A DNA stretch of 64,000 nt from positions 3,822 through 67,821 of the forward strand of contig CAYPOT010000011.1 in the NCBI GenBank assembly GCA_964412455.1, given 5' to 3'. Below the pieces are notes generated by a model, which saw only the letters and a program-made list of their open reading frames with translations, was not told the DNA's origin and did no database searches. Both the position numbers and the translations under genes were made by a program. Shown here in pieces: positions 42,550 through 63,627 of this stretch. Source of the DNA: an uncultured Nitrospiraceae bacterium (GTDB taxonomy: Bacteria; Nitrospirota; UBA9217). How positions within the stretch are numbered: position 1 is the stretch's first letter; every line of letters starts with the position of its first letter.

Positions 42550-42613
42550 CCCCTCACCCCCCGATAGAGCCATTCGGGGGCAGGCCTGACCCTCTCCCGC
42601 AAGGGGCGAGGGA
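42550..42613. repeat. Gly/Pro-codon-like palindromic repeat (CCCTCACC...CCTCTCCCGCAAGGGGCGAGGG)
   Basis: Intergenic insertion between two Mrp genes. A related hairpin lies at 61675-61722. Confidence 0.6.
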
Positions 42614-42634
42614 ATAAATAAGGAGGACCAACGA

Positions 42635-43365: not shown

Positions 43366-43366
43366 C

Positions 43367-43717: not shown

Positions 43718-45201
43718 TAACAAACGCTCCGATCCTCATCATCGTAGTGCCGCTCCTGGCATCTCTGATCAACATCATACTGGGACTGCGCTGGCGAGCG
43801 CTCAGCTTCCCCCTGATGCTGGCGGCCCTTTCCGTGAGCGCGGCATCGAGTTTCATCGCGCTCGACACCGTGATCGGGTCCGGGACCATTCACTACCGTC
43901 TCGGCGGCTGGGCGCCGCCCTGGGGCATTGAGTATGTGATAGACCATTTGAACGGTTTTGTGGCCGTGATCGTATCGTTCGTCAGCCTCGTCATCGCCGT
44001 TTATTCAAGGAAGAGCATTGAGCAGGAGTTCCCCGGCAAGACCGTGTACTTCAACTCCATCTTTTTGCTGTTCGTTACCGGCCTGCTCGGCATTGTCGTG
44101 ACGGGCGACATCTTCAATATCTACGTATTCCTCGAAATAACCTCTCTGGCGGGCTACGCTCTCGTGGCCATCGGGCCGGACAAGCGGGCCCCGCTCGCCG
44201 CCTTCAACTATGTGGTCATGGGCACGATCGGGGCTTGTTTTTATCTCCTCGGCGTCGGCTATCTGTATATCATGACGGGCACCCTTAACATCGCGGACAT
44301 GTCGAGGCTTCTGCCCGGCCTGTACCATTCCCCGGTGATACAGGTCGCCTTCGCCTTCTTTATGGTGGGAATAGCGGTCAAGATCGCCCTCTTCCCTCTG
44401 CACCGATGGCTTCCGGACGCTTATACCCTCGCCCCTTCATCGGTGAGCGCCTTAGTCGCATCAACCATGACAAAAGTGGGCGCCTATGTGATGATGCGGA
44501 TCATGTTCACGGTGTTCCAACCGTCTTTTTCCATCGAGGTCCTGCCGGTGATGTCCATACTGGGCTGGGTGGCCGCGGCGGCGGTGATCTTCGGCTGCGG
44601 GTACGCGATCGCCCAGACGGAGCTCAAGAGGATGCTATCGTATATCCTGATCGCTGAAGTGGGCTACATCGTCATGGGCGTGAGCTTCGCGAACAGGACC
44701 GGCCTTACCGGCTCGATACTGCATATTCTTAACGATTCGTTCATGATGGCCTGCCTGTTCCTTGCCGTCGGCGCGATAGCGTATAAGACAAAAAACACGA
44801 ACATTGATTCACTGTCGCAGCTCCACAAAACCATGCCCATTACCATGGCCGCCCTTGTCGTGGGAGGCGTCTCGGTCGTGGGCATTCCGCCGACAGCCGG
44901 TTTTTTCAGCAAATGGTATCTGGTGCTTGGGGCGATCGAGGCCGGGAAATGGGTGTTTGCGGCGGTGCTGTTGATCAGCAGCCTGATGTCGGCCATCGTC
45001 TTCTTCAGGATCATCGAGCGCGTTTACTTCACCGCTGCAGGCCCCGGTCATGGCCGTGGCGCGAAGGCTGGAATGGATGAGGCGCCGCTCAGCATGCTCA
45101 TCCCGGTCCTTATCATGGCCTCGGGGATATTGACCCTCGGGTTCTTCAGCGGCAGGATCATCAAAACCGTGATACAGTTCGCCGTGCCGGCCGGGTTATA
45201 A
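43714..45201 (+). CDS. mrpD: Mrp subunit D (NuoM/N-like antiporter subunit), copy 1
   Basis: 495 aa, about 14 TM. FPLHRWLPDAY and the proton-pump fold pattern. Confidence 0.85.
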   Translation: MITNAPILIIVVPLLASLINIILGLRWRALSFPLMLAALSVSAASSFIALDTVIGSGTIHYRLGGWAPPWGIEYVIDHLNGFVAVIVSFVSLVIAVYSRKSIEQEFPGKTVYFNSIFLLFVTGLLGIVVTGDIFNIYVFLEITSLAGYALVAIGPDKRAPLAAFNYVVMGTIGACFYLLGVGYLYIMTGTLNIADMSRLLPGLYHSPVIQVAFAFFMVGIAVKIALFPLHRWLPDAYTLAPSSVSALVASTMTKVGAYVMMRIMFTVFQPSFSIEVLPVMSILGWVAAAAVIFGCGYAIAQTELKRMLSYILIAEVGYIVMGVSFANRTGLTGSILHILNDSFMMACLFLAVGAIAYKTKNTNIDSLSQLHKTMPITMAALVVGGVSVVGIPPTAGFFSKWYLVLGAIEAGKWVFAAVLLISSLMSAIVFFRIIERVYFTAAGPGHGRGAKAGMDEAPLSMLIPVLIMASGILTLGFFSGRIIKTVIQFAVPAGL

Positions 45202-45210
45202 AGAATATTA

Positions 45211-45353
45211 GCCACGAAGGACTTCGACGAGCTCAGTCGAGTCGCTCTAAGACACAAAGAAGACCTTAAAAATAAACGAGCTAGTCAAGCCACGGTTGCC
45301 ATAGGCCACATTGAGACACTCAAGCTTTTTTCGCGCCTTCGTGTCTTTGTGGC
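45211..45353. repeat. Family-H-like palindromic repeat between the two mrpD genes
   Basis: GCCACGAAGG...GACACAAAGAAG...CGCGCCTTCGTGTCTTTGTGGC. Confidence 0.7.
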
Positions 45354-45383
45354 AAATTTGGTTTCTCTCTGGCAGGAGGAAGG

Positions 45384-46901
45384 ATGGAAGTTCTCTATTC
45401 TGCTCGACCGCTGCTGGCCGTACTGGTTTCCCTTGTCGCCGCGTTCCTTATCCTTCTTACAGGGGAACGGAGAAGAAACCTCAGAGAGACCTGGACCATT
45501 CTGGCCGGCGTGGTCAAGTTTTCGCTCGTCGCATCCATGGTTCCCTTTATCCTCGATGGAAAGGTGATTGAATACACGGTCCTGACCATTGCCCCGGGCC
45601 TTTTGATCCAGTTCCGGGTGGACGCCCTCGGCGTTTTTTTCGGCCTTACCGCGTCTTTTCTTTGGATCATCACGTCATTCTATTCCATCGGGTACGTGCG
45701 GTCGTTGAAAGAGCACGCCCAGACGAGATATTTCGCCTGCTTCGCGATAGCGCTTTCAGCGACAATGGGTGTGGCCTTTTCCGCGAACATGTTCACGACC
45801 TTCCTGTTCTATGAGCTCATAACCATCTGCACGTACCCGCTCGTTGCGCACAAGGAGACCCCGGAGGCCCGGAAAGGGGCGCGAAGATATGTCGCCTATC
45901 TGCTCGGAACGTCCGTCGCGTTCCTGCTCTTTGCGATTTTCCTCACCTACAACGCGGCCGGCACACTCGATTTCTCCAACCAGGGGATCCTCGCGGGCAA
46001 GGCCTCGGATGCCATGCTCATAGTGATTTTCGTTCTTTTCATGGCAGGCATAGGAAAGGCGGCGATGATGCCGTTCCATTCCTGGCTGCCCGCCGCCATG
46101 GTCGCTCCCACTCCGGTCAGCGCCCTCCTGCATGCAGTCGCCGTGGTGAAGACCGGGGTCTTTGTCGTGGTAAAGGTCGTGCTGCATATATTCGGGGTTA
46201 ATCTGCTGAGAGACCTCGGGCTCGGCGCGGCCCTCGCATATTTCGCCTCGTTCACCATTATCGTCGCTTCGATCATCGCGCTTCGCAAGGACAACCTCAA
46301 GGCCCGGCTGGCCTACTCAACCGTGAGCCAGCTCTCCTACGTTATTCTCGGCGTCGCCCTTCTGACCCCGTCGGGCATCACCGGCAGCATCATGCACATC
46401 GTGCTGCATGCCTTCGGCAAAATAACCCTCTTCTTCGCCGCCGGCGCGATCTACGCGGCGGCCCACAAGACCGAGATCAGCCAACTCGACGGAATCGGTA
46501 AAAAAATGCCCTTTACCATGGCCGCGTTCACCCTGGGCGCGCTCTCCATGATAGGGATACCTCCGCTCGGAGGGTTCCTGAGCAAATGGTACATCGCGCT
46601 CGGCTCGATCGAGGCGGGCCAATTGCCCATTCTCGCTGTTATCGCAACGAGCACGATCCTGAATGCCGCATATTTCCTGCCGATAGTATATGCGGCCTTC
46701 TTCAGGGATCCCAAAGAGGAACACCACCCTGATTCACATTCTCACTCAGAGAACCACAAATCCGCAATTCACGAGGCCCCCGCCATGATGGTCGTGCCGC
46801 TGGTCCTTACCGCGACCGGAGCGGTCGCTTTATTTTTCAAGCCGTCGTTATTTCTTGATCTTGCGCGGATGGCGGTAACGACCGTAACCGGAGGGAATTG
46901 A
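45384..46901 (+). CDS. mrpD: Mrp subunit D (NuoM/N-like antiporter subunit), copy 2
   Basis: 505 aa. MPFHSWLPAAMVAPTPVSALLHA motif. Confidence 0.85.
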   Translation: MEVLYSARPLLAVLVSLVAAFLILLTGERRRNLRETWTILAGVVKFSLVASMVPFILDGKVIEYTVLTIAPGLLIQFRVDALGVFFGLTASFLWIITSFYSIGYVRSLKEHAQTRYFACFAIALSATMGVAFSANMFTTFLFYELITICTYPLVAHKETPEARKGARRYVAYLLGTSVAFLLFAIFLTYNAAGTLDFSNQGILAGKASDAMLIVIFVLFMAGIGKAAMMPFHSWLPAAMVAPTPVSALLHAVAVVKTGVFVVVKVVLHIFGVNLLRDLGLGAALAYFASFTIIVASIIALRKDNLKARLAYSTVSQLSYVILGVALLTPSGITGSIMHIVLHAFGKITLFFAAGAIYAAAHKTEISQLDGIGKKMPFTMAAFTLGALSMIGIPPLGGFLSKWYIALGSIEAGQLPILAVIATSTILNAAYFLPIVYAAFFRDPKEEHHPDSHSHSENHKSAIHEAPAMMVVPLVLTATGAVALFFKPSLFLDLARMAVTTVTGGN

Positions 46902-46902
46902 G

Positions 46903-47028
46903 ATGAAGAATGAGCATAAGGAGCTCCTGGAGCTCAAACACGATCCTGAGCCGGGATACCTGAAGGCTTTCTTTATTGCCGTTTCAATCGGCGTCGTATA
47001 TTTAGCCGTCATTTTCTTATCATCCTGA
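46903..47028 (+). CDS. 41-aa single-TM micro-protein in the Mrp cluster
   Basis: ATG lies 1 nt after the mrpD stop and 8 nt after GGAGGG. ...GYLKAFFIAVSIGVVYLAVIFLSS. Confidence 0.5.
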   Translation: MKNEHKELLELKHDPEPGYLKAFFIAVSIGVVYLAVIFLSS

Positions 47029-47042
47029 AAAGGAGCACTCTC

Positions 47043-47285
47043 ATGGAGAAAAAACATTTTTTTGATAAGCCGGAAAATTTAAAACGGTTTTTAAAGGTTT
47101 TTTATATCTTCCTTGTTCTGCTGGTAGTTGTTGACCTGTTCATACCCAAGCATCCTTATTTCACGTGGGAAGAATTCCCGTCTTTTTACGCCACCTACGG
47201 GTTTGTGGCATGCGTCCTTCTCGTATTGGCGGCAAAATATATCCTTCGTCCCCTTGTCAGGAGAAGGGAGAATTATTATGAGTAA
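47043..47285 (+). CDS. 80-aa two-TM protein in the Mrp cluster
   Basis: RBS AGGAG 7 nt upstream. Two hydrophobic helices. Overlaps the next gene by 8 nt. Confidence 0.6.
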   Translation: MEKKHFFDKPENLKRFLKVFYIFLVLLVVVDLFIPKHPYFTWEEFPSFYATYGFVACVLLVLAAKYILRPLVRRRENYYE

Positions 47286-49077
47286 CGCGTTCCCCCCGGC
47301 TGCGATCTTCATCCTTGGCGCGTTTTTGATCCCTCTTTTCAAGGGTCGGGCAAGAGCTGGATACCTGCTCACTCTGCCTGTTGTCGCCTTTATCAATCTC
47401 CTTGGCATGCAGGAGGGTTCGTACTGGTCTGTCCCTTTCCTGGAATATCAGATGGTGTTCGGCAGGGTTGACAGGCTCAGCATGGCCTTTGGATATATCT
47501 TCACGATCGTGTCCTTTATCGGGGCGCTCTATGCCGTTCGTGTCAAGGAAGCAGGCCAGCATGTGGCGGCCTTTCTGTACGCGGGAAGCGCATTAGGCGC
47601 GGTATTCGCCGGGGACATGCTCTCTTTGTTCGTATTCTGGGAAGTCATGGCGTTCGCTGCGGCGTATCTTGTCTGGGCAGGGAAGAGGCCCGGATCCCAG
47701 GCGGCCGGTTACAGGTATCTTCTGGTCCATATCTTCGGCGGGCTCTGCCTCCTTGTGGGCATACTCATTCATGTGCATAACACCGGGTCAATCGAATTCG
47801 GGTACCTGGGCTTAAACAGCCTTGCGTCGTATTTTATCCTGCTCGGATTCGGAATAAACGGCGCCTTCCCGCTTCTCCATGCGTGGCTTCCGGATGCTTA
47901 TCCGGAGTCGACTTTTTCCGGCACGGTTTTTTTGAGCGCCTTTACCACCAAGACCGCCGTCTATGTTCTTGCGAGGTCTTTTCCCGGCACCGACCTGTTG
48001 ATCTGGATCGGCGTCGCTATGACGGCATTTCCCATCTTCTACGCGGTCATTGAAAACGACATGCGAAAGGTGCTCTCCTACAGCCTGATCAACCAGGTCG
48101 GGTTCATGGTGACGGGCATCGGGATAGGCACGGCGCTTTCGCTGAACGGTACGGTCGCCCATGCTTTCGCCCATATCCTGTACAAGGCCCTTCTCTTCAT
48201 GTCAATGGGCGCGGTTCTGCACCAGACAGGAAAGATAAACGCCACCGACCTCGGCGGACTGTACAAGAGCATGCCGCTTACGACCATATTCTGCATCATC
48301 GGCGCCGCGTCAATATCGGGCGTCCCTCTCTTTAGCGGATTCGTAAGCAAATCCATGATCGTGAGCGCGTCCGGTCACGAGGGCCTGACGTTCATATGGT
48401 TTGTTCTTATTTTCGCCTCCGCGGGCGTCTTCCATCATTCAGGGATCAAGATCCCGTATTTCGCTTTTTTCTCCCACGACTCTGGCTTACGACCAAAAGA
48501 GGCCCCGTTCAACATGCTTCTCGCCATGGGGATCGCCGCCTTCCTTTGCATTTTCATTGGCGTATTCCCCGGATATCTCTACAACATACTGCCGCATCCC
48601 GTTGACTATGCGCCGTACACCGGCGCGCACGTTATTGATCAACTCCAACTGCTTTTCTTCTCGGCGCTGGCATTCACCCTTCTGATGCTGTCTGGAATAT
48701 ATCCTGCCGAGATCAGGGCGACCAACCTCGACGCGGACTGGTTCTACCGGAAGGGCGCCAGGGCGTTCATGTGGGCCGTGAATAATCCGATGGCGAGGTT
48801 CGGGGGATGGATAAACAGGGTCGCCTTTGACGTCATACCTGCTTCCCTGTCATGGTTCAGCAAAAATCCGATTTCGGCAATGAAGATCGGCACGGACACC
48901 CTGTTGTTGAAATTCAGCAAAGAAGACCGGAAGGCCGGCATTGAGCGGAGACTTAAGGTGGAGAAGGCGGCTTTTCCCGGGGACATAGTAAAGCACCGTC
49001 CGATCGGCCAGAGCGTGCTGTGGGCAACGCTGTTTCTCCTTGCCTATCTGCTGATATACTACGCCAATAGGGGATGA
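47278..49077 (+). CDS. NuoL/MrpA-like antiporter subunit with long C-terminal extension
   Basis: 599 aa from ATG 47278. FPLLHAWLPDAYPEST motif. About 100 mostly polar residues are followed by a final TM segment (VLWATLFLLAYLLIYY), as in a NuoL lateral helix plus anchor. Confidence 0.8.
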   Translation: MSNAFPPAAIFILGAFLIPLFKGRARAGYLLTLPVVAFINLLGMQEGSYWSVPFLEYQMVFGRVDRLSMAFGYIFTIVSFIGALYAVRVKEAGQHVAAFLYAGSALGAVFAGDMLSLFVFWEVMAFAAAYLVWAGKRPGSQAAGYRYLLVHIFGGLCLLVGILIHVHNTGSIEFGYLGLNSLASYFILLGFGINGAFPLLHAWLPDAYPESTFSGTVFLSAFTTKTAVYVLARSFPGTDLLIWIGVAMTAFPIFYAVIENDMRKVLSYSLINQVGFMVTGIGIGTALSLNGTVAHAFAHILYKALLFMSMGAVLHQTGKINATDLGGLYKSMPLTTIFCIIGAASISGVPLFSGFVSKSMIVSASGHEGLTFIWFVLIFASAGVFHHSGIKIPYFAFFSHDSGLRPKEAPFNMLLAMGIAAFLCIFIGVFPGYLYNILPHPVDYAPYTGAHVIDQLQLLFFSALAFTLLMLSGIYPAEIRATNLDADWFYRKGARAFMWAVNNPMARFGGWINRVAFDVIPASLSWFSKNPISAMKIGTDTLLLKFSKEDRKAGIERRLKVEKAAFPGDIVKHRPIGQSVLWATLFLLAYLLIYYANRG

Positions 49078-49677: not shown

Positions 49678-51132
49678 ATGAAAATCCGCGACAAATTGTT
49701 CCTCGGATTCGGCCTCTACCTGGCGCTTGTGGTCATTTTCGGCATTCTCGCCTACAAGGACCTGCGAATGATCGGCACCCACCTCCTGCACCTTGAGGTC
49801 TCCGATGACATCACCAGCTCCCTGCTCGAGGCGCGCCGCCACGAAAAGAACTACTTCCTGTACCGGGAACCGGACAGCCTCGGGGAGATGGCGCATTACC
49901 TGGCGGCGATGAAGGGATCCATCGAAAAGATCCGCACCGAAATGGCAAACAACATCGGCGCCGAACGGGTTGGCCTGATGGACCGTGCGATCGCCGACTA
50001 CGAACGATTGATCGGCAATTTGGGCCTGATGAAGGCCGGACGCGGCAAGGCTATGGCGCAGGGCCAGCAGGAAGAGGCGGAGGTCGAACTGATCCGCATG
50101 ACCGCGCGGGAGATCCATGTTCACGTGGAGGCGAACGCGCGAAAAGAGCGTGCTGATATCGACGCCATTGTCAGGATGTCAGCGATCCTGCTGGCGGTCA
50201 CGATTGGTCTCATCATCGTGTTCGGTACGATCATCAACAGCAAGCTGGCGAAGAGCATCGTGGTTCCCATCCAGGAGCTCGAGCGCATCACCAAGAAGAT
50301 CGCCCGGGGCGACTTTTCCGAGAACATCGTAATAAAAGGACACGACGAGATCGCGTCGCTGGCGCAATCCTTCAACCAGATGGAGGACAAGCTGGACCAC
50401 GCGATGACGGCCCTGGACGAGATCATCACGAAGCTGCGAGAGAAGCAGTCCCAGCTGGTGGAGGCGGAAAAGCTGGCGGGGATCGGGAAGCTGGCCGCGG
50501 GCATCGCCCACGAGATCAACAACCCCCTCACGTCGGTGCTTACCTTTTCGAACCTGATGCTGGAACAGTGTCCTCCGGACGATCCCCGGTACGATAAGCT
50601 GAAGCTCATGGCCAGGGAAACCGACCGCGCGAGGACCATCGTGCGCCAGCTGCTCAACTTCGGCCGCGAGACCGTCATTAAAGCGGTGAAGATCAACATC
50701 AACCAGCCGGTGACCGAGATCACGGAGTCGCTGATCGCCCAGGAGGCCTTCAAGGGGATCGAGATTTCCCTGAAGCTTGCCGACAATCTCCCGGAGGTAT
50801 ACGCCGACCCTGCCCAGGTCGGCCAGGTCGTCCTGAACATCCTGCTGAATGCCATTCATGCCATCACTCCGCCCGGGAGGATCGACGTCTCTTCACGGCT
50901 CGCGGACAAGAACGTTGAAGTTGTCTTCACCGACACGGGCAGGGGCATACCTGAGGAGCACATGAACAAGATCTTTGATCCGTTCTTCTCCACCAAGGCG
51001 GCGACCAAAGGCACGGGGCTCGGGCTCGCCGTCAGTTATGGTATTATTAAGAAGCACGGCGGAGAAATTGCCGTCGAGAGCACCGTGGGGAAAGGGACCA
51101 CCTTTATTGTGAGGATGCCGATCTATGGATAA
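49678..51132 (+). CDS. Sensor histidine kinase (2 TM, HAMP, HisKA, HATPase)
   Basis: 484 aa. H box [12 protein letters not shown]; N/G boxes [25 protein letters not shown]. Confidence 0.85.
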
Positions 51133-52516
51133 GCTCCGGGCGCTGGTCGTCGACGACGAGTCAAGTGTGTGCGAGGCCGTCAAGGCTATCCTCGAACTCG
51201 AGGGGCTGGACGTTACCACCACGGTCAGCAGTGTCGATGCCGTGGATATGGTCAAAAAGGACGGCTACGACTTGATCATTTCGGACCTCAAGATGCCGGT
51301 CATGGACGGCCTCCAGTTCTATGACAAGGTCCGGGAGATCGAAAGCGACAGCATTTTTATCATCATCACCGCCTACGGCACCATCCCGTCGGCCGTGGAC
51401 GCAGTGAAAAAGGGCGTCTATGACTACATTCCCAAACCCTTCACACCCGACGAAGTGCGGCTGCCGTTGCGCCGCGCCCTGGAGAAGAGGCGGCTCGAGC
51501 AGGAGAACATCACTCTCCGGACGCAGATCGAGACGCGGTACTCCTTTCAGAACATCATCGGCAACAGCCCCGAGATCCGCGAGATATTCCGCATCATGCG
51601 CCACGCCGCCTCGAGCGAGTCCAGCGTACTGGTGACCGGCGAGAGCGGGACCGGCAAGGAGCTTGTGGCGCGCGCCATCCACTCCAACAGCGTCCGCGCC
51701 CGGAAGAAGTTCATGACCGTGAACTGCGGCGCCATCCCCGAGGGGCTCATCGAATCGGAGCTCTTCGGCCACGTGAAAGGCTCGTTCACCGGAGCAGTGG
51801 CCGACAAGAAAGGACTGGTCGAGGAGGCGGACAAGGGGACGCTCTTTCTGGACGAGATCGGCGAGCTGGCGCCCCAGCTCCAGGTGAAGCTTCTCCGCAT
51901 TCTGCAGGAGGGCGAGTTCACGCGCATCGGCGACACCCTGCCCCGGCGGGTGAATGTCCGCGTTATTGCGGCCACGAACCGCGACCTCAAAAAGTCCATT
52001 GCCGATAAGATGTTCCGGGAAGACCTTTTTTACCGGCTGAACGTGATTCCCATCGAGCTGCCGCCCCTCCGGAGGCGCACCGAGGACATTCCGCTTTTGG
52101 CCAATCATTTCGTGGAGAAACACAAGGGCAAGGCGGCGGAAAAGAACATCACCGGCTTCGCCAAGGACGCCCTGCAGGCGCTTATGAACTACCACTTTCC
52201 CGGGAATGTGCGCGAGCTTGAGAACGCGATAGAGTACGCGATCGCTTTTACCGCGGGGCCGGCCATCCAGCGCGACGAACTGCCGAAGTATATCCTGGAA
52301 GAGAAGAAGCTCAACGAAGAGGCCCGGACGATACCGCTCATGCCGCTCAAGGACGCGAAGCACCAGTTCGAACGGAGCATGATCATGGCGGCGCTGATCG
52401 AATCGGGCGGCAACATCTCCGAGGCCGCGCGCCTGCTTCACATCCACCGCCAGAACCTCCAGCAGAAGATCCATCTCCTCGGCATCGATCTTGACTCCGT
52501 TTCTGCCTCAAAATAA
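51125..52516 (+). CDS. Sigma-54-dependent response regulator (NtrC/AtoC family)
   Basis: 463 aa. Receiver ALVVDDE...ISDLKMPVMDG, GESGTGKE, ESELFGHVKGSFTGA, HTH AARLLHIHRQNLQQKI. Overlaps the kinase gene by 8 nt. Confidence 0.9.
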   Translation: MDKLRALVVDDESSVCEAVKAILELEGLDVTTTVSSVDAVDMVKKDGYDLIISDLKMPVMDGLQFYDKVREIESDSIFIIITAYGTIPSAVDAVKKGVYDYIPKPFTPDEVRLPLRRALEKRRLEQENITLRTQIETRYSFQNIIGNSPEIREIFRIMRHAASSESSVLVTGESGTGKELVARAIHSNSVRARKKFMTVNCGAIPEGLIESELFGHVKGSFTGAVADKKGLVEEADKGTLFLDEIGELAPQLQVKLLRILQEGEFTRIGDTLPRRVNVRVIAATNRDLKKSIADKMFREDLFYRLNVIPIELPPLRRRTEDIPLLANHFVEKHKGKAAEKNITGFAKDALQALMNYHFPGNVRELENAIEYAIAFTAGPAIQRDELPKYILEEKKLNEEARTIPLMPLKDAKHQFERSMIMAALIESGGNISEAARLLHIHRQNLQQKIHLLGIDLDSVSASK

Positions 52517-52867: not shown

Positions 52868-52883
52868 TGGCACGTGTTCTGCA
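52868..52883 (+). promoter_or_regulatory. Sigma-54 promoter TGGCACGTGTTCTGCA
   Basis: Near-consensus match to TGGCACG-N4-TTGCA. It lies 59 nt upstream of ATG 52942. Confidence 0.7.
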
Positions 52884-54624: not shown

Positions 54625-54640
54625 TGGCAAGGTACGTGCA
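54625..54640 (+). promoter_or_regulatory. Sigma-54 promoter TGGCAAGGTACGTGCA
   Basis: GG/GC are in canonical register. It lies 46 nt upstream of ATG 54686. Confidence 0.65.
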
Positions 54641-55802: not shown

Positions 55803-56462
55803 TCAAGCGCGTGATTGATTTTTTGCGAAAAAGAGCGCTATCGCCTGCGTCCTGCTTTTTACATTGAGCTTCTTATATACACGGTACAGATGCGACTTCA
55901 CGGTCCGCTCGCTAATATTGCTTCCGCCCGCGATCTCACGATTGGTAGCACCCTGAAGCACCCTCGTGAGCACTTCCATTTCACGGTCGGTCAAAGATCG
56001 AAGTTTCGGGACATGAGCATGAAGCGTTTCCGGCAATAACATCGGCTTTGACAGTGCCATTTCGAGAAGTCTTCTTTCCACCCATATCTCCCCCTCATGG
56101 ACAGTGCGAATCGCTTTTGCCACGCTCACCGGAGAGTCGGTAATGCGAATGTACCCCCTGACCCCGGTCTTGACGTTTGTAATGACGGTTTCATCTGAAG
56201 GAGGGTTCTCAAAGATGAGGATCATTCTCGTATGAGGAGATTCAGCCTCGACCGAATTGATCAAACGGGACAGGGTCCGCCGTTTTAAAACAGCAGGATT
56301 CAGAATGATGATATCGGGCCTGGCTGACAGTTGCCTGAGCGCATTATCAATGGTTGAGACAACTCCAACCACTTCAATATCGTGGTGTTTGTTTAACATT
56401 TTTGTCAACGTCTCAGCCTGGCCGCTGTTGTTATCAGCTACCAGTATTCGAATAACGCTCAT
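55803..56462 (-). CDS. LuxR/NarL-family regulator with a pseudo-receiver domain
   Basis: 219 aa. C-terminal HTH LTDREMEVLTRVLQGATNREIAGGSNISERTVKSHL. The receiver has ADNN and IIILNPAV where DD and the phospho-Asp are expected. Confidence 0.75.
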   Translation of the reverse strand: MSVIRILVADNNSGQAETLTKMLNKHHDIEVVGVVSTIDNALRQLSARPDIIILNPAVLKRRTLSRLINSVEAESPHTRMILIFENPPSDETVITNVKTGVRGYIRITDSPVSVAKAIRTVHEGEIWVERRLLEMALSKPMLLPETLHAHVPKLRSLTDREMEVLTRVLQGATNREIAGGSNISERTVKSHLYRVYKKLNVKSRTQAIALFFAKNQSRA

Positions 56463-56700
56463 AATGCCTCCAGCGCATCGTTCATTTATATACTATTTTA
56501 GAACGACCAGGATGTCAAGCTGACGACAAGGAACCCAGCCGTCGCGCAATATTCGCACAAATAACAATATTGCATACAGATAAGCGCAGTATGTTAACGG
56601 CACTCATTCGCAGACAGCTTTATAATATAAAACCCGGATACGGTGGGAGTCGCAGACCGACGCCAACTTCCCGGGAGATAATGAAGATCCCGTCATTTAG

Positions 56701-56830
56701 CAGGCTGTTGAAAAACTAATATCGCAGGCTAAATCCTTCGGCTGCCAAATCGTAACGTATTTATTTCTCGCAAGCAGCCGCATCCTTTAGGGTGCGTTTT
56801 CAGCTTTTCGACGCCTTTTTCAACAGCCTG
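56701..56830. repeat. Repeat family F-related palindromic element
   Basis: 15-bp TIR CAGGCTGTTGAAAAA / TTTTTCAACAGCCTG. Its left arm is shared with 25146 and 25773. Confidence 0.8.
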
Positions 56831-57253
56831 TTAAGATAATCTCACAGGGTACTGATTGCTGATTTTGTGGTCAGTGCGTTGAATTTTCAGGAGATTATCC
56901 TATAGCGGCCCGCGGGACTTTAATCCGTTCTCTCTTTAAGTTTCCTTAAAACCCTTATCCAGAAGAGAGTATTTCAGCGACATATTTTACATTCAACCAA
57001 TATTTAATACGCATTTATAGCCATATTTTACATGTAGTTACAGTCACTACGGGGTAAGTTTTTACGTAAGTCCGCATGAAGTTAAAAATTGTTATTGACA
57101 GTAATTATATTTTGTGATATTTCCATAACAGGGTTTCTAATACTTTAGTCTTACTGGTGGGCTTCCTGGCTTCTTAAGAACTGTGTCAAAAAAGGGGGTG
57201 ACTTGCTGGTAAGAAGCCCAAGCCGACCAAATCATAACCAAGGAGGACCGACC

Positions 57254-57817
57254 ATGATCAAGAAGATCGCAAGTATTTTACTCCTGTTGCTTTTAGTTGC
57301 GGTGCCCGTGGCATTCGCGGAGGATGAAGTCGGGGAAGTGGCAAGCGCGATCAAATCCGCCGCGCCGATACCGCCCGGACAATTCGCGATTATCGCGAAA
57401 TACGCGGATCGATATCTGAGCGGTGTTGCCGGCCGCACGATCTATGCCTCGGTGTTTAATGATGGCATCAACGATCCGGCCAAACCCTATGACGACCTGA
57501 GCGATTTCTTTGTTCTCGATATCAGGTCGGCGGCGGATTTTGCTAAGGGACACATAGAGGGCGCGGTCAACGTACCGTTTGCGCTCGTCGCAAAGTCTGA
57601 AAACCTCGTCCTGTACCCGACGGACAAGCCGATGCTCATTGTGTGCTACACGGGTCATACGGCATCAGTCGCAACAGGCATTCTGAACACCCTGGGCTAT
57701 GATACGTGGACACTCCGTTTCGGCATGATGTCCTGGACGGGATATTCAACACAGAAGATCTATTCCCCCAGTGTAACTCAGGGCATTTACGGCGGCGCAT
57801 ATCCGGTAGTACAATAG
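57254..57817 (+). CDS. Exported single-domain rhodanese sulfurtransferase
   Basis: ATG 57254. Signal peptide ILLLLLLVAVPVAFA. FFVLDIRSAADFAKGHIEGAVN and catalytic loop CYTGHT. Confidence 0.75.
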   Translation: MIKKIASILLLLLLVAVPVAFAEDEVGEVASAIKSAAPIPPGQFAIIAKYADRYLSGVAGRTIYASVFNDGINDPAKPYDDLSDFFVLDIRSAADFAKGHIEGAVNVPFALVAKSENLVLYPTDKPMLIVCYTGHTASVATGILNTLGYDTWTLRFGMMSWTGYSTQKIYSPSVTQGIYGGAYPVVQ

Positions 57818-58029
57818 AGAATCCAGCATGGGGTCCCCGGGAACGGGGACCCCATTTTAGTTAATTAATGCTGCAACTATCCGCAATTATTATACTTATT
57901 CAACAACATATTGAAATGACGAGTTAATAGTGATTGTCAGCAAATAGGTTGCCGTTTCATCGTGAAGTTTGCAGCAATGCTGTCGCTGTATATTGATAAA
58001 GAAGCTCATGTCAAACAGGGGAGGGGAAA

Positions 58030-58539
58030 ATGGATTTTTTCACGCGAACAAGAGGTTCCAGGCCCTATTCGGCGCAAAAGCGGTCCATCGAAACGTCCAT
58101 ACTCGCGATCTTTATTCTTGTGCTTGTGCTTGCAGCCTTCACCAGGGGAGACGCCGCCGAAAAAACGACGGATCAACTCCTGGATGAGGCACGCGCAGCA
58201 GTAAAGAGCGTCTCGATCCAGGAGGTTAAGGGCATCGTCGAGCGGAAGGAGAAGGTGGTCCTTCTCGACATCAGGGACATGAAACAATTCAGTATTGATC
58301 ATATCCAGGGCGCGCAGAGCATGTCGCGGGCAGTAGGCCTTTCTCCGCGCATTCTCGAGTATCACTTGCAGAAAATCGCGCCGGATAAGACCGCCAGGAT
58401 CATCGTGTACTGCGAGTTCGACACCCGTTCTCCACTGGCGGTAAAAGAGATGAATGCGATCGGATATTCAAATGCCATGTATATGAAAGGTGGAGTGGAG
58501 GCCTGGAAAAAGGAAGGATATCCGCTCGAAAAACAGTGA
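58030..58539 (+). CDS. Membrane-anchored/exported single-domain rhodanese
   Basis: 169 aa. Hydrophobic segment ILAIFILVLVLAAF. VVLLDIRDMKQFSIDHIQGA and catalytic loop CEFDTR. Confidence 0.75.
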   Translation: MDFFTRTRGSRPYSAQKRSIETSILAIFILVLVLAAFTRGDAAEKTTDQLLDEARAAVKSVSIQEVKGIVERKEKVVLLDIRDMKQFSIDHIQGAQSMSRAVGLSPRILEYHLQKIAPDKTARIIVYCEFDTRSPLAVKEMNAIGYSNAMYMKGGVEAWKKEGYPLEKQ

Positions 58540-58561
58540 TGCTCCCCGGGAGGAATGAACG

Positions 58562-60190
58562 ATGAACATTCGCACGGTAATGAATCGCAGCCTGGCAGTC
58601 GGCGCCTCGGTGGTTGCCATGGCCGTTGCCGGTCAGTTTTTCGTGAGCTGCGGCGGCAACTATGAAAAGCCTTCAACAACGCAAACCGAATCCGCGCTGA
58701 TCCCGGCTGAAACCCTGAGAGCCTGGATGGCTGCCGGTAAGGTGAACGGCGCCGGCTACGACCGGGTGGTCATCCTCGATGTGAGCACCTCGGCAAATTA
58801 TGCCGCCGGGCACATTCCCGGAGCGCTTTTTCTCGATCCCAACGATCTCAGTCAATCCAGGACCGAAGGCGTCGGGATTTCCGGCACCGAGGTCCTGGAA
58901 GGTTCAAAAATGGACGCGCTGATCCAAAAGTACGGGATAGACGGCGGGACGACGGTTGTCTTCTCGGGGTCGTCTTCTCCTTCGGGTTTTCCTTGGAGTA
59001 TGATGAATCCTTCGCGGGCATATTTTGTATTCCGATACTGGGGCTTCCCCAAGTCGCGGCTTAAGCTGCTGGACGGGTTGAATGCGTCCTGGACCTCCGG
59101 GCTGACCACCGATCCCTCTCCGTCAGTCGCGCAGTCTACCTATAGCGTCAAGAACAACCGGGCGCTGCGGAGCGACCTCAGGGTGTCATTATCGGAAATG
59201 ATCGATTATGCGGATGGTAAAATACCCGGCGTCCTCCCGATAGACGTCAGAAGCGCGGCTACGGGCGGATCCTACGCAGGAGTCCGCGGTTCCACCACAG
59301 GCCTATATTCAACCGTCAGCGGGACCGCATCAGTAACGGATGTCATGGTTTTTGAAGGCCGCATCAGGGGCGCTCAAGCCCTGCTCTACAGTTCTCTCTA
59401 CAACGGGTCGTATATGTTCAACCCAACGGACCAGCTCATAGCGAGTTTCACCGCCATCGGGCTTGACAGTACAAAAACCGCTTATGTCTACTGCAGAGTC
59501 GGGAACCTTGCAGCAATCGGATTTTTCGTACTCGACGGAATACTTGGATGGCCGACGGCTGTTTATGACGGTTCATGGTCACAATGGGGACAATTATCGG
59601 GGAACGCGAGCATGAAAGGTCAGCTCAGCGCGGCATCGCCCTGGCGAACGGATATAGCGGGGCGCAGCGACCTGATCGTTTATAATTATGAATCAATCAG
59701 CGCCGTCACTTTTTCGGGAACAGGGACGAATGATTTGGTGACAGGCGGGCTCTATACGAGCGGGACAACTTCAACATTCACCGTGCAGATTGATTTTGTT
59801 GGCACTCCGGATACGTTCAAATGGACGGGCGATGGTGGTTCTACCTGGGCAACGGGCATCCCGATCACGGGCAGCGCTCAATTATTAGTCAGCGGTCTGA
59901 CCGTCTCTTTTGGTTCAACCGGAGGACATGCGCTGGACGATTCCTGGACGTTTACGGCGAGAGCGAGAAAAAATGTCGAGCAATTGACCGCGGATGGAAC
60001 CACCTGTTCGGCAACCTACCTGGCAAACGGCGCCATAGCGAACTCCACCGCCGGCACAACGGCCTGCACCAATTCCCCGGCCTCTTTTGATACCGGCGCC
60101 AACCGGGTCGAGGAGGCAGACAAGGCTTACATAAAGTCAGGCGGATCGGGAGGAGGCGGGGGCGGAGGGAGCGTTCCTACCGGCTGCTAA
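58562..60190 (+). CDS. Tandem-rhodanese lipoprotein with Thr/Gly-rich C-terminal domain ending in a poly-Gly tether plus Cys
   Basis: 542 aa. Lipobox-like AGQFFVSC. The first domain has no loop Cys (VVFSGSSS). The second has the loop YCRVGN and DGSWSQWG. The C-terminus is ...SGGSGGGGGGGSVPTGC. Confidence 0.75.
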   Translation: MNIRTVMNRSLAVGASVVAMAVAGQFFVSCGGNYEKPSTTQTESALIPAETLRAWMAAGKVNGAGYDRVVILDVSTSANYAAGHIPGALFLDPNDLSQSRTEGVGISGTEVLEGSKMDALIQKYGIDGGTTVVFSGSSSPSGFPWSMMNPSRAYFVFRYWGFPKSRLKLLDGLNASWTSGLTTDPSPSVAQSTYSVKNNRALRSDLRVSLSEMIDYADGKIPGVLPIDVRSAATGGSYAGVRGSTTGLYSTVSGTASVTDVMVFEGRIRGAQALLYSSLYNGSYMFNPTDQLIASFTAIGLDSTKTAYVYCRVGNLAAIGFFVLDGILGWPTAVYDGSWSQWGQLSGNASMKGQLSAASPWRTDIAGRSDLIVYNYESISAVTFSGTGTNDLVTGGLYTSGTTSTFTVQIDFVGTPDTFKWTGDGGSTWATGIPITGSAQLLVSGLTVSFGSTGGHALDDSWTFTARARKNVEQLTADGTTCSATYLANGAIANSTAGTTACTNSPASFDTGANRVEEADKAYIKSGGSGGGGGGGSVPTGC

Positions 60191-60280
60191 TGATGCCCCT
60201 GTTGCCGAGGTCTGTTTTTTGAAGCGATTCGTCATGTATGCTTTGGTATGCGTCAGCTGTCAGGCGCGAAGGAGGAATTC

Positions 60281-61513
60281 ATGAGTAAGGGGATGCGAAT
60301 GAGGATATTCACGGTCTGCACAGGTTTTATCCTTCTTTTGCTCGGTATTGCCCGGATAGGCGCAGCCGAGGAGGCGAAATCATCCTGTCTGACCTCAGAC
60401 GGTGCAGTGATAAGGATGAGCGACACGGCTTTCATGCGAATTAATTATCAAAGCCAGTTCGTGGGCGCCTGGCGGGACACGGGGTCCGGGCGCGATGGGA
60501 CGAAGCCCACGACCGATTTCTATTTTCGGCGCAACCGGTTGACCCTGAGCGGACAGGCAACCAACGAGCTGAGCTATGCGATCAAATTGGACCACTCGGG
60601 TCCGCGACGGGTCGGCGCTGTCGACGTTGCGCAGGAGCCGGTCAGCGAGTTCGAGGTGCTTGAGGCGCATGTGGACGCGGAGCTCGGCAAGGACTTTCAC
60701 GTGACGGTAGGAAAGACAAAAATACCTTTTACGCGTGAGGTGCTGGAAGGCTGTTTCAATCCCCTTACACTCGATCGTTCGCTGTTCATCGCCACCCCCA
60801 TGCAACGAACAAGGGATATGGGGGTAGTGCTCTGGGGAAACGCGATCCAATCCAAAGTTAAATATATGGCGGCAATTCAAGAGGGGCAGGAGACTTCCAA
60901 CGCACCCGAGAGTTCTCCCCGCTACACAGGCCGGGTCCATCTCGCACTGCTCGACCCCGAAAGCGTCTTTGGCTACAGCGGCACCTACCTGGGAAACAAA
61001 ATGGTCTTTACGATCGGCGGCGCCGCCCAGTATGAGGCAGGCGCGGTCTACGGTGATGTGAACAACATGGCGGGTGAAAAAGATTATAAATCATGGACCG
61101 CGGATATCTTTATCGAGTATCCTGTAGGGCTTGCCGGCTCGGCTACGCTCTCGGCCGCTTACATGGAAACGAACTTTGATAAAGCGTATCAGGGATCTGA
61201 TCCGGATCCCGGAAGCGTCGGCGTTGACGGTGAGAAAAAAGGATGGTATGCTAAGGCCGGTTTCCTCTTTATTGACAAGATCGGCCCGGGCCAGATCCAG
61301 CCTTTTCTCAGGTATGAAGATTGGAACTTTGCCCAGCTGAACGGCGTTTTCGCACAGCGGATAAAATGGACCGGCGGCGGCGTAAATTACCTCATCAATG
61401 GCCAGAATTTGAGGTTGACGCTGGAATATGCGCAGACTGATTTTAAAGATGAGGAAAATTCAGATTCACAGGATTTCACGACGATAACCTCGATGCTCCA
61501 GTTCAGTTTTTAG
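60281..61513 (+). CDS. Outer-membrane porin-like beta-barrel (OprO/P-like?)
   Basis: ATG 60281 after AAGGAGG. Signal peptide ...LLLLGIARIGAAEE. Alternating beta-strand pattern, FYFRRNRLTLSG, and C-terminal MLQFSF. Confidence 0.65.
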   Translation: MSKGMRMRIFTVCTGFILLLLGIARIGAAEEAKSSCLTSDGAVIRMSDTAFMRINYQSQFVGAWRDTGSGRDGTKPTTDFYFRRNRLTLSGQATNELSYAIKLDHSGPRRVGAVDVAQEPVSEFEVLEAHVDAELGKDFHVTVGKTKIPFTREVLEGCFNPLTLDRSLFIATPMQRTRDMGVVLWGNAIQSKVKYMAAIQEGQETSNAPESSPRYTGRVHLALLDPESVFGYSGTYLGNKMVFTIGGAAQYEAGAVYGDVNNMAGEKDYKSWTADIFIEYPVGLAGSATLSAAYMETNFDKAYQGSDPDPGSVGVDGEKKGWYAKAGFLFIDKIGPGQIQPFLRYEDWNFAQLNGVFAQRIKWTGGGVNYLINGQNLRLTLEYAQTDFKDEENSDSQDFTTITSMLQFSF

Positions 61514-61674
61514 TTGTCACCACCGGGCGCGGCAAGCGGCTTGATCAAACCTGATCCGCAAGCCGAAACGGAAAGGCGTCTCACGCAAAGCAGCAAAGGA
61601 CGCCAGGAAAACTTTTAGGCCTTGGTCTTAAATAGCGACTAATACGAGCGCAATAGAATTTGTTACGGCTTTGC

Positions 61675-61722
61675 CCCTCACCTTTATCCTCTCCCCATAG
61701 GGGAGAGGGTTGGGAGAGGGGG
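61675..61722. repeat. Hairpin repeat CCTCTCCCC-ATA-GGGGAGAGG with flanking G/C-rich arms
   Basis: Read directly. Same class as 42550-42613. Confidence 0.6.
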
Positions 61723-61983
61723 GACGTGCCGGGATGGAACATTATCTATTTCGTTTGTATTGGTCCGGCCTTTCTTTACGACTTTGCGCGAAAACAGACA
61801 GCCTTATTTGTAGAAATTGGTTCAAAAGGCATGATAACTGTTCTGCAGAGTCTTTTCTATTTGCCCCGGTGGTACCGGGGGTTCTACCGCCGGTCTTTTA
61901 ACAACAGCGGGATGCCGGATAAGGTCCGTCATGACAAACAAACTTTTTAAAACAGACTCTGAGCGCTATTGAGGGCCGCTACG

Positions 61984-63627
61984 ATGGGAATGCTGAAAGA
62001 TAAGGTCGCTAAAAGTATAGGCGCAAAACTGGTGCTGGTCATGTCTATCGTCATTGCCCTTATCATGATCCTCAGCTCGGCCTTTATTGCCCAAAATCTC
62101 TATCGGGGGCAGGTTCGCATGCTTGAGGCGCGGGCACACGAGCTCGGTTTTTTCCTGGGGAAGAACCTGTCCGATCCCATTCTTTTTAAAGACAGCATCG
62201 CGATCGACAGCCTCGTGGCGGAAGCAGCTTCAGCAAGGGACATGGTATTTGTATACGTATCGGACACCCCCGGGACGGTGCTGTCGAGCGCGGTTGCAAG
62301 CTTCAATGAAAAAGAGACCGGCGAACTCCTCAAAGGGGAAAAAAGCGAAGATGTCCGCGCACTCGCGGATAGAATTATGAAGACGCTCGATGTGATGACA
62401 CTGACGTCGGACGTTCAGGTGGACGGCAAAAAGCTCGGAACCGTGACCATGGGATTCTCAAAGCGGGCGATCACGCGCGAGACAAACAGCATAACAGGAA
62501 TGCTTGCCGGGACCAGCGTGGTGATCATTCTGGCGCTCGCGGGAATGATATATTTCATGGTCCGCAGGCTGGTCGTACTGCCCGCGGCTTCCGCTGTCAG
62601 TGTGGTGAGGCTGGTGGCGGCCGGAGACCTTTCGAAGGAAATCCGCGTTCGCTCCCTTGACGAGCTCGGAGAGCTGGGGGGAATGATCAATAAGATGATC
62701 GTCGATCTCAGGGAATTAATAGGAAAAATACGGGAGAGCGCTGAAGATACGACAGCACATGCCCAGCAGATCGCCTCGGGTTCGGACGTCCTTTCCCGCG
62801 GCGCTTCCGAACAGGCGTCATCCGTCGAGGAGGTCTCTTCTTCAACGGAGGAAATGGCCGCCAATATCCGTCAAAATACGGAGACCGCGAACGAGACCAA
62901 GAAGATCGCCCTCAAGGCGGCGGAAAACGCACAAGAGGGTGGCAAGGCTGTTGATGAAACCGTGATCGCGATGAAGGAGATATCGGGAAAGGTATCATTC
63001 ATCGGGGAGATCGCCCGGCAAACGAACCTGCTTGCTTTGAATGCGGCAATCGAGGCGGCACGGGCCGGAGAGCACGGGAGGGGATTCGCGGTCGTAGCGT
63101 CTGAAGTGCGAAAGCTCGCGGAAAGAAGCCAGGCGGCGGCAGATGAAATAAACAAGCTTTCCCTGACCAGCGTCGGAGTGGCCGAACTGGCGGGCCAATT
63201 GCTCAAGAAGATCGTTCCGGACATTCAAAAAACCGCGGAGATGGTGATGGAGATCAGCAGCGCCAGCGCCGAACAGAATTCAGGTGCTGAACAGATCAAC
63301 AAGGCCGTCCAGCAGCTCGACAGGGTAATTCAACAAAACGCGGGCGCCGCGGAAGAAATGGCTTCAACGGCGGAAGTGCTTTCGTCCCAGGCCGATCAAC
63401 TCCTGTCAACCGTCTCCTTCTTCAAGATGTCGGGAAAGGAAGATGCTTCGGCCCGGAGCAAAAACGTGAGGGCCATAAGCCATGACCGGGATGTCGCCAG
63501 GTCGCCGGGGAATACGGCAGCGCCTGCACCGGGAAGAGAAATAAAAGCGATCGGAAGGCGCTCAGGTGTGACACTGGATATGGGGAGCGTTCAAGATAAA
63601 CACGATGACGCATTTGAGAAATTTTGA
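61984..63627 (+). CDS. Methyl-accepting chemotaxis protein
   Basis: 2 TM plus HAMP. The signalling hairpin [41 protein letters not shown] is highly conserved. ATG 61984 is preferred over TTG 61969. Confidence 0.9.

Follow-up and report, generated by a model that had tools for sequence, protein, structure and literature searches.

A cytochrome-free ExtH/ExtI locus in an uncultured Nitrospiraceae bacterium: a candidate module for the import of chalcogen anions

How polysulfide gets across the outer membrane is described in the literature as not known, and the crossing of elemental sulfur (S0) or polysulfide is an acknowledged gap for sulfur-respiring and sulfur-disproportionating bacteria (PMC13510729). 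A gene cluster that may bear on this gap lies in a 64-kb stretch of DNA from an uncultured Nitrospiraceae bacterium (contig CAYPOT010000011.1). This whole stretch is here referred to as the window, and all positions are given on its + strand. The cluster encodes two small exported rhodaneses, named Rhd1 and Rhd2 here, a rhodanese lipoprotein and a porin that are orthologues of ExtH and ExtI of Geobacter sulfurreducens, and a methyl-accepting chemotaxis protein (MCP). In Geobacter, ExtH and ExtI are encoded together with cytochromes. The question raised by this locus is what such a pair might do where no cytochrome accompanies it. The answer that we favor, and that we consider reasonably probable rather than secure, is that the locus would be a cytochrome-free ExtH/ExtI module for the capture and import of a chalcogen anion, be it polysulfide or thiosulfate, with selenite as an equivalent.

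A named gene pair and its conserved surroundings

A first-pass annotation of the window had placed four codirectional open reading frames (ORFs) at this locus, and all four were confirmed on the + strand, at 57254-57817 (Rhd1), 58030-58539 (Rhd2), 58562-60190 (ExtH), and 60281-61513 (ExtI). Each is preceded at a distance of 5 to 8 nucleotides (nt) by a Shine-Dalgarno sequence, namely AAGGAGGA before 57254 and again before 60281, GGGGAGGGG before 58030, and GGGAGGA before 58562. The same annotation had likened the last two products to ExtH and ExtI. This resemblance exceeds analogy, as both proteins pass the NCBIfam equivalog cutoffs. The porin matches NF040900 (selenite/tellurite reduction operon porin ExtI) with 431 bits against a cutoff of 150, over model positions 31-403 of 403. 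The lipoprotein matches NF040901 (selenite/tellurite reduction operon rhodanese-like protein ExtH, an equivalog model) with 299 bits against a cutoff of 200; this match spans residues 18-367, with the C-terminal third of the protein lying outside the matched model region. The ExtH/ExtI pair is a known, named, and automatically annotated NCBI family, and its cytochrome-free form is common in Nitrospirota.

To assess the distribution of the pair, one genome of each species was scanned for a pattern, with confirmation by tblastn; at least 388 stretches were found to encode an ExtI relative. In the 80 best loci, ORFs were called and labeled by phmmer with the window proteins, and CXXCH motifs were counted; loci compared with the window carry L numbers. 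The nearest named relatives are metagenome-assembled genomes of Nitrospirota, Nitrospirae bacterium GWC2_56_14 and GWC2_57_13. ExtH and ExtI are paired in most of the approximately 80 loci, across four phyla, and the range of ExtI, which has been called unique to Geobacteraceae (PMC5877670), is hereby widened to at least four phyla. The gene order around the pair differs between lineages. In Desulfuromonadales, including Geobacter, and in Vicinamibacteria, ExtH and ExtI are followed by an ORF of about 100 amino acids (aa), a 5-heme ORF, and then 12-heme and other cytochromes. In Thiobacillus and other Proteobacteria, the order is ExtH, a 5-heme ORF, a 3-heme ORF, ExtI, a histidine kinase, and a sigma-54 regulator, usually with YeeE/YedE nearby. 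In Nitrospirota, ExtH and ExtI stand without cytochromes. Pentaheme ORFs occur near ExtHI in Desulfobacterota, Acidobacteriota, and proteobacterial loci. For loci that extend 3 kb or more to each side of ExtI, a multiheme ORF was present within 6 kb in 22 of 23 proteobacterial, 14 of 19 Desulfobacterota-type, and 4 of 5 Acidobacteriota loci, as well as in 1 of 12 Nitrospirota loci and in 0 of 4 loci from the window's clade. Because only one of the 12 Nitrospirota loci has a multiheme ORF, the cytochrome-free state of ExtHI is the norm in this phylum and no peculiarity of the window.

The window itself bears out the absence of cytochromes that had been noted at the outset. None of the five cluster proteins contains a CXXCH motif, the feature by which a porin-cytochrome conduit would be recognized, and there is no multiheme ORF near the cluster, the sole one in 64 kb being a c7-type triheme ORF at 12642-13097, 45 kb away. 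With regard to ExtKL and the other ext cytochromes, no multiheme ORF was found near the cluster; ExtJ homology was not searched for directly. The locus might nonetheless be read as a partner-less remnant of an extHIJKL-type porin-cytochrome conduit, with its cytochromes encoded elsewhere and the rhodaneses as accessories. It is true that extHIJKL was first described among putative electron conduits (PMC6148476), that multiheme ORFs lie beside ExtHI in most non-Nitrospirota loci, and that at one Nitrospirota locus (L040:11577-14889) ExtI is directly followed by a Rieske protein, a cytochrome b, and an 8-heme ORF, an intermediate architecture reminiscent of ExtO/ExtP and the cytochromes encoded in the Geobacter cluster. 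However, no multiheme ORF is found within 45 kb in the window, beside ExtHI in 11 of the 12 Nitrospirota loci, or in any member of the clade; the genes gained in the clade encode sulfurtransferases and a chemoreceptor and are kept under conservation; and ExtKL is now described as an enzyme rather than a wire (PMC13510729). Moreover, ExtI is modeled as a 16-strand, OprP-like barrel of general-porin size. The barrel of an MtrB-type conduit is much wider than a general porin. We regard descent from a conduit in this sense as very improbable. An ExtH/ExtI pair that occurs without cytochromes, in the company of only sulfur carrier proteins and a chemoreceptor, argues instead for a self-contained sulfur/selenium unit.

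The surroundings of the pair are conserved as well. One clade, with ExtI proteins that are 66-100% identical, contributes six independent contigs that have Rhd2-ExtH-ExtI-MCP in common between unrelated flanks. The full order Rhd1-Rhd2-ExtH-ExtI-MCP is found at L001 (ExtI 66% identical), L084 (72%), and L085 (70%), Rhd2-ExtH-ExtI-MCP at L002 (87%) and L086 (67%), and Rhd2-ExtH-ExtI at L004 (63%). As the order is kept while both flanks change, the conserved core of the cluster is Rhd2-ExtH-ExtI-MCP. Rhd1, which was not found at the L002, L086, and L004 loci, is a facultative member. The co-occurrence in relatives on which the first-pass annotation had staked its proposal is therefore real, with different flanks. 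That annotation knew of no description of the four-gene arrangement. Rhd2 (with or without Rhd1) followed by ExtH, ExtI, and MCP was not found in the literature searched, and neither were the pore-loop cysteine, the terminal-cysteine arm, and the selenocysteine (Sec) variants described below; but the pair is already a named family, and the conserved unit is Rhd2-ExtH-ExtI-MCP rather than the four genes originally listed.

The spacing of the genes is less uniform than the short gaps initially described. Directly 3' of Rhd1 there is an intrinsic-terminator-like hairpin on the + strand (57828-57855; 12-bp stem, 9 of its pairs being G-C, and then TTTAGTT), and the spacer between Rhd1 and Rhd2 is 212 nt long. 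On account of this hairpin and spacer, Rhd1 probably forms its own transcript, separate from Rhd2 onward. The distance from the end of ExtH to the start of ExtI is 90 nt. The hairpin after Rhd1 could be taken to mean that the genes are independent and were brought together by chance or by shared regulation, as a phosphate-type porin and unrelated rhodaneses for cyanide detoxification or a PspE-like role in envelope stress. In line with this, rhodanese domains occur widely and are promiscuous, the porin belongs to a Pfam family named for phosphate, and universal stress protein (Usp) genes lie upstream. Against it stand the gene order kept on six contigs while both flanks differ, the pairing of ExtH with ExtI across four phyla, and the narrow Rhd2 family, a member of which lies beside ExtH at every close-relative locus examined; furthermore, expression of Geobacter ExtI does not respond to phosphate starvation (PMC5877670). 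Independence of the genes is largely refuted by the synteny, and we give it even less credence than descent from a conduit; chance adjacency and the conduit remnant are both poorly supported.

Predicted structures and conserved cysteines

ExtI was initially called a porin-like barrel, and the present data agree. The protein has 410 aa and a signal peptide, read from the sequence, that ends ...RIGAA/EE, and its match to Pfam Porin_O_P (PF07396; E value, 4e-20) covers its full length. An AlphaFold2 (AF2) model shows 16 long strands with a predicted local distance difference test (pLDDT) score of 74. When this model was compared with known structures by Foldseek, the best match was OprP (2o4v; E value, 1e-13; template modeling [TM] score, 0.61), along with OprO, followed by general 16-strand porins. 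As searches against PDB sequences with either the single sequence or a profile gave no match, the relationship to OprP could be recognized only through Pfam and the structure comparison. The fold and the Pfam family are those of the phosphate-selective porins O and P, and many arginines are invariant, including several discussed below; an arginine-rich motif, TTDFYFRRNRL, is also present. The ExtI-specific cysteine described next and the sulfur context nevertheless argue for a substrate other than phosphate.

This cysteine, Cys158 (codon 60752-60754), belongs to a loop of 30 residues that joins strands 5 and 6 in the model; we take this to be the position of the constriction loop L3 in 16-strand porins. 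All of the 84 ExtI sequences aligned, which come from four phyla, keep Cys158 along with R84, R86, K147, R152, R166, R218, and H220. The cysteine lies in the motif K-x4-RE-x2-E-x-C-x2-PL[TS]xDR, a signature derived in this analysis rather than a published criterion. When 1.84 billion representatives were searched exhaustively with a profile, 63 were found at an E value of ≤1e-30 and 703 at ≤1e-10. Cys158 was present in every full-length representative among the 14 best, and from rank 15 onward the position was occupied by Gly, Ala, Asn, or Thr. Since the more distant Porin_O_P-like proteins lack this residue, Cys158 is a signature of ExtI and not of Porin_O_P generally. A second cysteine, Cys36 (60386-60388, in ...AKSSCLTSDG), lies near the mature N terminus; in the alignment of 84 sequences, its column holds Cys in 8 and a gap in 70. 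The nearest Cys-less outgroup porin, which has Gly at the Cys158 position (L090:3554-7765), is flanked by genes for OsmC, Metal_resist, a cysteine-desulfurase-like aminotransferase, and DsrE. Upstream, a histidine kinase is encoded along with a sigma-54 regulator, and the context is again a sulfur-related one. No rhodanese lipoprotein was seen at L090, the one outgroup neighborhood obtained and too few cases to generalize from. No ExtH was seen beside a divergent Cys-containing porin on a short contig.

ExtH is an outer-membrane-type lipoprotein with the lipobox ...GQFFVSC/GG (FVSC), judged by eye; Cys30 of this lipobox is invariant in 46 homologues. Pfam recognizes two rhodanese stretches in the protein, and in the AF2 model, built on the same 46 homologues (pLDDT, 88.5; predicted TM score, 0.85), residues ~45-345 form a tandem rhodanese. 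The loop of the N-terminal domain, read from the sequence, has no cysteine (VVFSGSSS), and the C-terminal domain carries the catalytic Cys311 in YCRVGN (codon 59492-59494), invariant in 46 of 46 homologues. Foldseek gave TM scores of ~0.8 to the thiosulfate sulfurtransferases 3aax, 3hwi, and 1uar and bovine TST. The CRVGNL loop has an arginine at position +1, as do thiosulfate-type enzymes (CRxGx[R/T] class). While the lipobox, the Cys-less first domain, and the active second domain had all been read correctly in the first pass, the remainder of the protein is not the plain Thr/Gly-rich tail of ~180 aa that had been assumed. Residues 369-466 (nt 59666-59959) are modeled as a confidently folded beta-sandwich insert, present in the closest clade only; residues 515-526 form a conserved helix with the family-wide motif N-x2-E-x2-D-x2-Y; and residues 529-542 are a disordered, Gly-rich arm (pLDDT, <50) with a terminal Cys542 (codon 60185-60187), the end of the protein reading ...SGGSGGGGGGGSVPTGC. 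Pfam and PDB sequence searches with the C-terminal 166 residues (377-542) gave no match, leaving the insert unclassified. Cys542 is at least 90% conserved among the 46 homologues. In a wider set, 64 of 77 ExtH proteins from several phyla have a Gly/Ser-rich end with a cysteine within the last three residues (...C in 43 and ...NPCG(G) in 21), and a Nitrospirota subgroup of 8 ends in ...PIAPGY instead. At another locus (L054:9244-9786), an ExtI homologue is directly preceded by the gene for a 180-aa lipoprotein (lipobox, ...FTNGC) that has no match to the window rhodanese queries. This lipoprotein, too, has ...GECG as its end, a hint that it may be the terminal-cysteine arm, and not the rhodanese, that accompanies ExtI.

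At six Nitrospirota loci, an in-frame TGA stands exactly at the position of the catalytic Cys311 of ExtH, and the frame continues beyond it (...HVY-TGA-RTGVIAS). These codons are located at L006:9397-9399, L011:8802-8804, L014:3084-3086, L015:8884-8886, L017:8620-8622, and L052:9343-9345. Such variants probably contain Sec and are split into two ORFs by gene callers. This assignment is made because an in-frame TGA occupies the catalytic position in six loci and not because of RNA hairpins. Five TGA sequences were folded in a test for a Sec insertion sequence (SECIS) element; two of them have a hairpin, GGACUGG-N8-CCAGUUC, that begins 4 nt 3' of the UGA, and the fold energies of the five were not significantly better than those of shuffled sequences. 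As TGA takes the place of the catalytic cysteine in six relatives, a redox-active nucleophile at this position is implied.

Rhd1 (187 aa) is an exported single-domain rhodanese (PF00581; E value, 8e-12) with a signal peptide ending ...PVAFA/ED. Its sole cysteine, Cys131 (codon 57644-57646), lies in the loop VCYTGHTAS, in agreement with the single domain and CYTGHT loop first assigned to it, and is kept in 4 of 4 orthologues; orthologues are found in L001, L084, and L085. Rhd2 (169 aa; PF00581; E value, 4e-15) likewise has one cysteine, Cys128 (codon 58411-58413), in the acidic loop YCEFDTRS. Its family is narrow, with all of the 32 homologues found being at least 56% identical and Cys128 invariant in 32 of 32; it adjoins ExtH at all close-relative loci and is a core member of the cluster. 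The rhodanese domain and CEFDTR loop of Rhd2 had been recognized in the first pass, but the N-terminal hydrophobic anchor proposed at the same time was not supported. The N terminus aligns with orthologues that bear an AxA signal peptidase site (...ALA/AEK), and it is more likely that Rhd2 has a cleavable signal peptide and is soluble in the periplasm rather than anchored. The loop cysteines of Rhd1, Rhd2, and ExtH, the conservation of which had been singled out as decisive, are kept in all sequences of the respective alignments. The catalytic loop of proteobacterial ExtH proteins (L058, L066, L079, and other Thiobacillus-type loci) reads YCETTFRAM, with Glu at +1 and Arg at +5, and is closer to the Rhd2 loop of the window (YCEFDTRS) than to its ExtH loop (YCRVGNL).

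The chemoreceptor and neighboring genes

The MCP gene (61969-63627, + strand) is the fifth conserved gene of the cluster. Its product has a transmembrane (TM) segment, a periplasmic sensor of ~150 aa, a second TM segment, a HAMP domain, and an MCP signaling domain (MCPsignal; E value, 2e-37), and its start is possibly the ATG at 61984. An orthologue lies directly 3' of ExtI in L001, L002, L084, L085, and L086. The sensor domains of these proteins are 66-79% identical to that of the window, as conserved as the signaling domains, and the sensor gave only a faint match to sCache_3_2 (E value, 0.025). A longer copy of the window contig (L087:11876-16125), which extends past position 64000, encodes CheY, STAS, and CheA right after the MCP; these che genes are not conserved in relatives. 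The spacer between ExtI and the MCP gene (61514-61968) is 455 nt long in the window and ~40-130 nt long in relatives. Inside it lies a REP-like palindrome, CCTCTCCCC-ATA-GGGGAGAGG (61688-61708), and a 96-aa ORF covering the palindrome (61660-61950) was judged probably spurious.

Two upstream elements were considered. A LuxR/GerE regulator (55803-56462) was rejected as a member of the cluster, since it adjoins the cluster in no relative. Regulation by a sigma-54 two-component system (49678-52516), in which a HAMP histidine kinase is paired with a sigma-54 regulator, was not supported, as no sigma-54 site was found before Rhd1 or Rhd2. Sigma-54 promoter-like sites are located at 52868-52883 (TGGCACGTGTTCTGCA, one mismatch) and 54625-54640 (TGGCAAGGTACGTGCA, two mismatches), 46-74 nt 5' of two Usp genes (52942 and 54686), both just downstream of this kinase-regulator pair. 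The Usp genes and the sigma-54 system probably form a regulon separate from the rhodanese cluster. In the long spacer 5' of Rhd1, a 19-nt inverted repeat, TTAGCAGGCTGTTGAAAAA, brackets ~100 nt at 56697-56834, and a second inverted pair of the same motif, ~960 nt apart, is found at 24810-25787. The four matches, against 0.01 expected, are reminiscent of a small mobile element bounded by terminal inverted repeats. An Rfam scan of the whole window returned two tRNAs only, with no riboswitch or known small RNA near the cluster. Farther upstream, a GntR regulator and a TauE/SafE-family (sulfite-exporter-type) membrane protein are encoded at 37297-39318, and an Mrp-type cation/proton antiporter cluster is located at 40995-49077.

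Proposed function and relation to known systems

In light of these features, we propose that ExtI is an outer membrane, arginine-lined anion porin of the OprP class that admits an external chalcogen anion, either S0-derived polysulfide or thiosulfate, with selenite as the chemical equivalent. ExtH, an outer membrane lipoprotein with a tandem rhodanese of the thiosulfate sulfurtransferase type, would act at or in ExtI and capture the anion as a persulfide (or perselenide) on its cysteines. From ExtH, the sulfur would pass to Rhd2, and to Rhd1 where present, as soluble, Sud-like periplasmic carriers, and from these to an acceptor encoded elsewhere in the genome. The coinherited MCP would link motility either to the same substrate or to the system's state. 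That these proteins form a stand-alone relay is what we infer, and no terminal acceptor is encoded in the window. In other lineages, the pair has further neighbors: one or two YeeE/YedE "sulphur transport" proteins (PF04143) are encoded upstream of ExtH at L012:605-8133, at L006, L009, L010, L040, and L076, and at most Thiobacillus-type loci (L056-L083), where a PAS histidine kinase is encoded as well, together with a sigma-54 response regulator. YeeE/YedE genes neighbor the pair in 5 of 12 Nitrospirota and 19 of 23 proteobacterial loci. An outer plus inner membrane import path is suggested for those lineages. YeeE/YedE was not found in the window.

Several points weigh against this proposal. 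For ExtI of any organism, only selenite and tellurite, and not polysulfide or thiosulfate, have been tried as substrates. Confidence in the ExtI model is moderate and is lowest in the L3 region. ExtH may face the surface or the periplasm, and sulfur flow could run outward. The acidic CEFDTR loop of Rhd2 is unusual for an anion-binding rhodanese, and coinheritance of the MCP amounts to linkage and does not tell what is sensed. Finally, no terminal reductase or oxidase for sulfur and no inner membrane transporter for it are encoded in the 64 kb, and because of this the pathway is open-ended.

The choice of sulfur over selenium also needs to be weighed. As the NCBIfam name of the family suggests, the cluster could be a dedicated selenium system that serves selenite uptake or detoxification and provides protein-bound perselenide for selenoproteins or Se0, with sulfur having no physiological part. 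The extI mutant of G. sulfurreducens is impaired in selenite and tellurite reduction (PMC5877670), and, together with the impaired selenite uptake cited in a later account (PMC8981825), these are the sole ExtI phenotypes measured, as far as these sources relate; ExtKL, too, reduces selenite (PMC13510729). Relatives of the window encode ExtH as a probable selenoprotein, and YedE-family proteins adjoin ExtHI elsewhere. Proteins of the YedE family are linked to selenium use. On the other hand, the family is concentrated in lineages that reduce, disproportionate, or oxidize sulfur (Desulfuromonadales, Thermodesulfovibrionia-type Nitrospirota, and Thiobacillus), a chemoreceptor and up to three rhodaneses fit an energy substrate better than a trace element, there is no selD, selA, or selB near the cluster in the window, and the essential role of ExtKL is polysulfide reduction in S0 respiration (PMC13510729). 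We therefore think a function confined to selenium unlikely, although the chemistry discriminates neither element and roles in both may coexist.

A more specific version of chalcogen import is suggested by the conserved cysteines. Rather than a passive channel, ExtH and ExtI might form a covalent cysteine relay, in which the arm of ExtH enters the ExtI pore, Cys542 meets Cys158 of the L3 loop, and sulfane sulfur (or selenium) taken up at Cys311 is passed from Cys to Cys. Once across the membrane, it would go to Rhd2 and Rhd1 here and to the ExtKL polysulfide reductase in Geobacter. We put this forward tentatively, as a possibility that is more doubtful than not. Loss of ExtI has been reported to impair selenite uptake and to displace ExtH from the outer membrane, suggesting direct contact (Jahan 2019, as cited in PMC8981825); if the relay exists, a disulfide or polysulfide tether between Cys542 and Cys158 would account for this ExtI-dependent localization of ExtH, and the relay would be the missing outer membrane route of S0-derived polysulfide. 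The pore-loop cysteine of ExtI, the terminal-cysteine arm of ExtH, and an exchange of Sec and Cys at the catalytic site are targets for mutation in the tractable Geobacter.

Of the known systems, the closest is extHIJKLMNOPQS of G. sulfurreducens, with ExtH (GSU2940) and ExtI (GSU2939). Phenotypes on Fe(III) and Mn(IV) have been reported for extHIJKL, which was described as one of five putative outer membrane electron conduits and as one in which a rhodanese replaces the cytochrome as the lipoprotein (PMC6148476). In 2026, ExtKL (GSU2937-2936, renamed MccSep) was identified as a periplasmic pentaheme selenoenzyme that reduces polysulfide and is essential for S0 respiration (PMC13510729). The window shares with Geobacter the families NF040901 and NF040900 and the order, with the tandem-rhodanese lipoprotein encoded immediately upstream of the OprP-like porin. 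Its ExtI is ~40-44% identical to the Geobacter-type proteins, and the Gly-rich ExtH arm with a terminal cysteine and the single conserved ExtI cysteine are shared by the Geobacter-type loci. In contrast, the window has no ExtKL, ExtMN cytochromes, or Rieske/cytochrome b proteins; it adds two exported single-domain rhodaneses and the MCP, and its ExtH has the clade-specific beta-sandwich. In Geobacteraceae, the operon also comprises ExtJ, ExtKL, and additional cytochromes, an arrangement that the window lacks and that does not define the ExtI family. Likewise, no LysR regulator, as found with the clusters of PMC6148476, is evident upstream in the window, where a LuxR-type gene is found instead.

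The proposal that an outer membrane route for sulfur might consist of a sulfurtransferase and a porin is already in print: for Desulfurivibrio dismutans, lipoprotein sulfurtransferases (such as RS05165), a colocated porin (RS05170), and YeeE/YedE were proposed in 2025 to import polysulfide, from genome and proteome data (PMC12142623). The concept is the same as that considered here. YeeE is encoded there and not in the window, and the extra Sud-like rhodaneses and the MCP of the window are absent there. An ExtI homologue is found in a Desulfurivibrionaceae locus (L047).

The individual proteins also have counterparts elsewhere. ExtI shares the 16 strands and the Arg-rich lumen with OprP and OprO of Pseudomonas aeruginosa, which are selective for phosphate and polyphosphate (PF07396); however, it is only ~15% identical to them and has a cysteine at the L3 position and, in most loci, a lipoprotein partner gene. 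Rhd1 and Rhd2 resemble Sud of Wolinella succinogenes in being small, exported, and single-domain with one catalytic cysteine, and the proposed carriage of sulfane sulfur in the periplasm is the same. Their partner here, however, would be an outer membrane module and not the inner membrane molybdoenzyme Psr; no psr genes are present in the window, and Rhd2 aligns with Sud (1qxn) over the whole domain but weakly (E value, 3.5e-6), with other rhodaneses scoring higher. Rhd1 and Rhd2 may work like Sud, but we do not class them as Sud. A further likeness is that to SoxY of SoxYZ, the C-terminal GGCGG swinging arm of which carries sulfur covalently. The C terminus of ExtH, likewise, is a flexible, Gly-rich stretch in which a cysteine is the last residue or close to it (...GGGC, or ...NPCGG in the Thiobacillus type), but no sequence or fold homology to SoxY was found for ExtH, and its arm is borne by a rhodanese lipoprotein and not by a SoxZ-bound carrier, so that the likeness is one of design only. 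Finally, the locus has in common with MtrCAB and OmbB-OmaB-OmcB that an outer membrane barrel and a lipoprotein are encoded together, while the barrel of the window has the size of a general porin, its proteins have no heme motifs, and cysteines would take the place of hemes as the redox-active groups.

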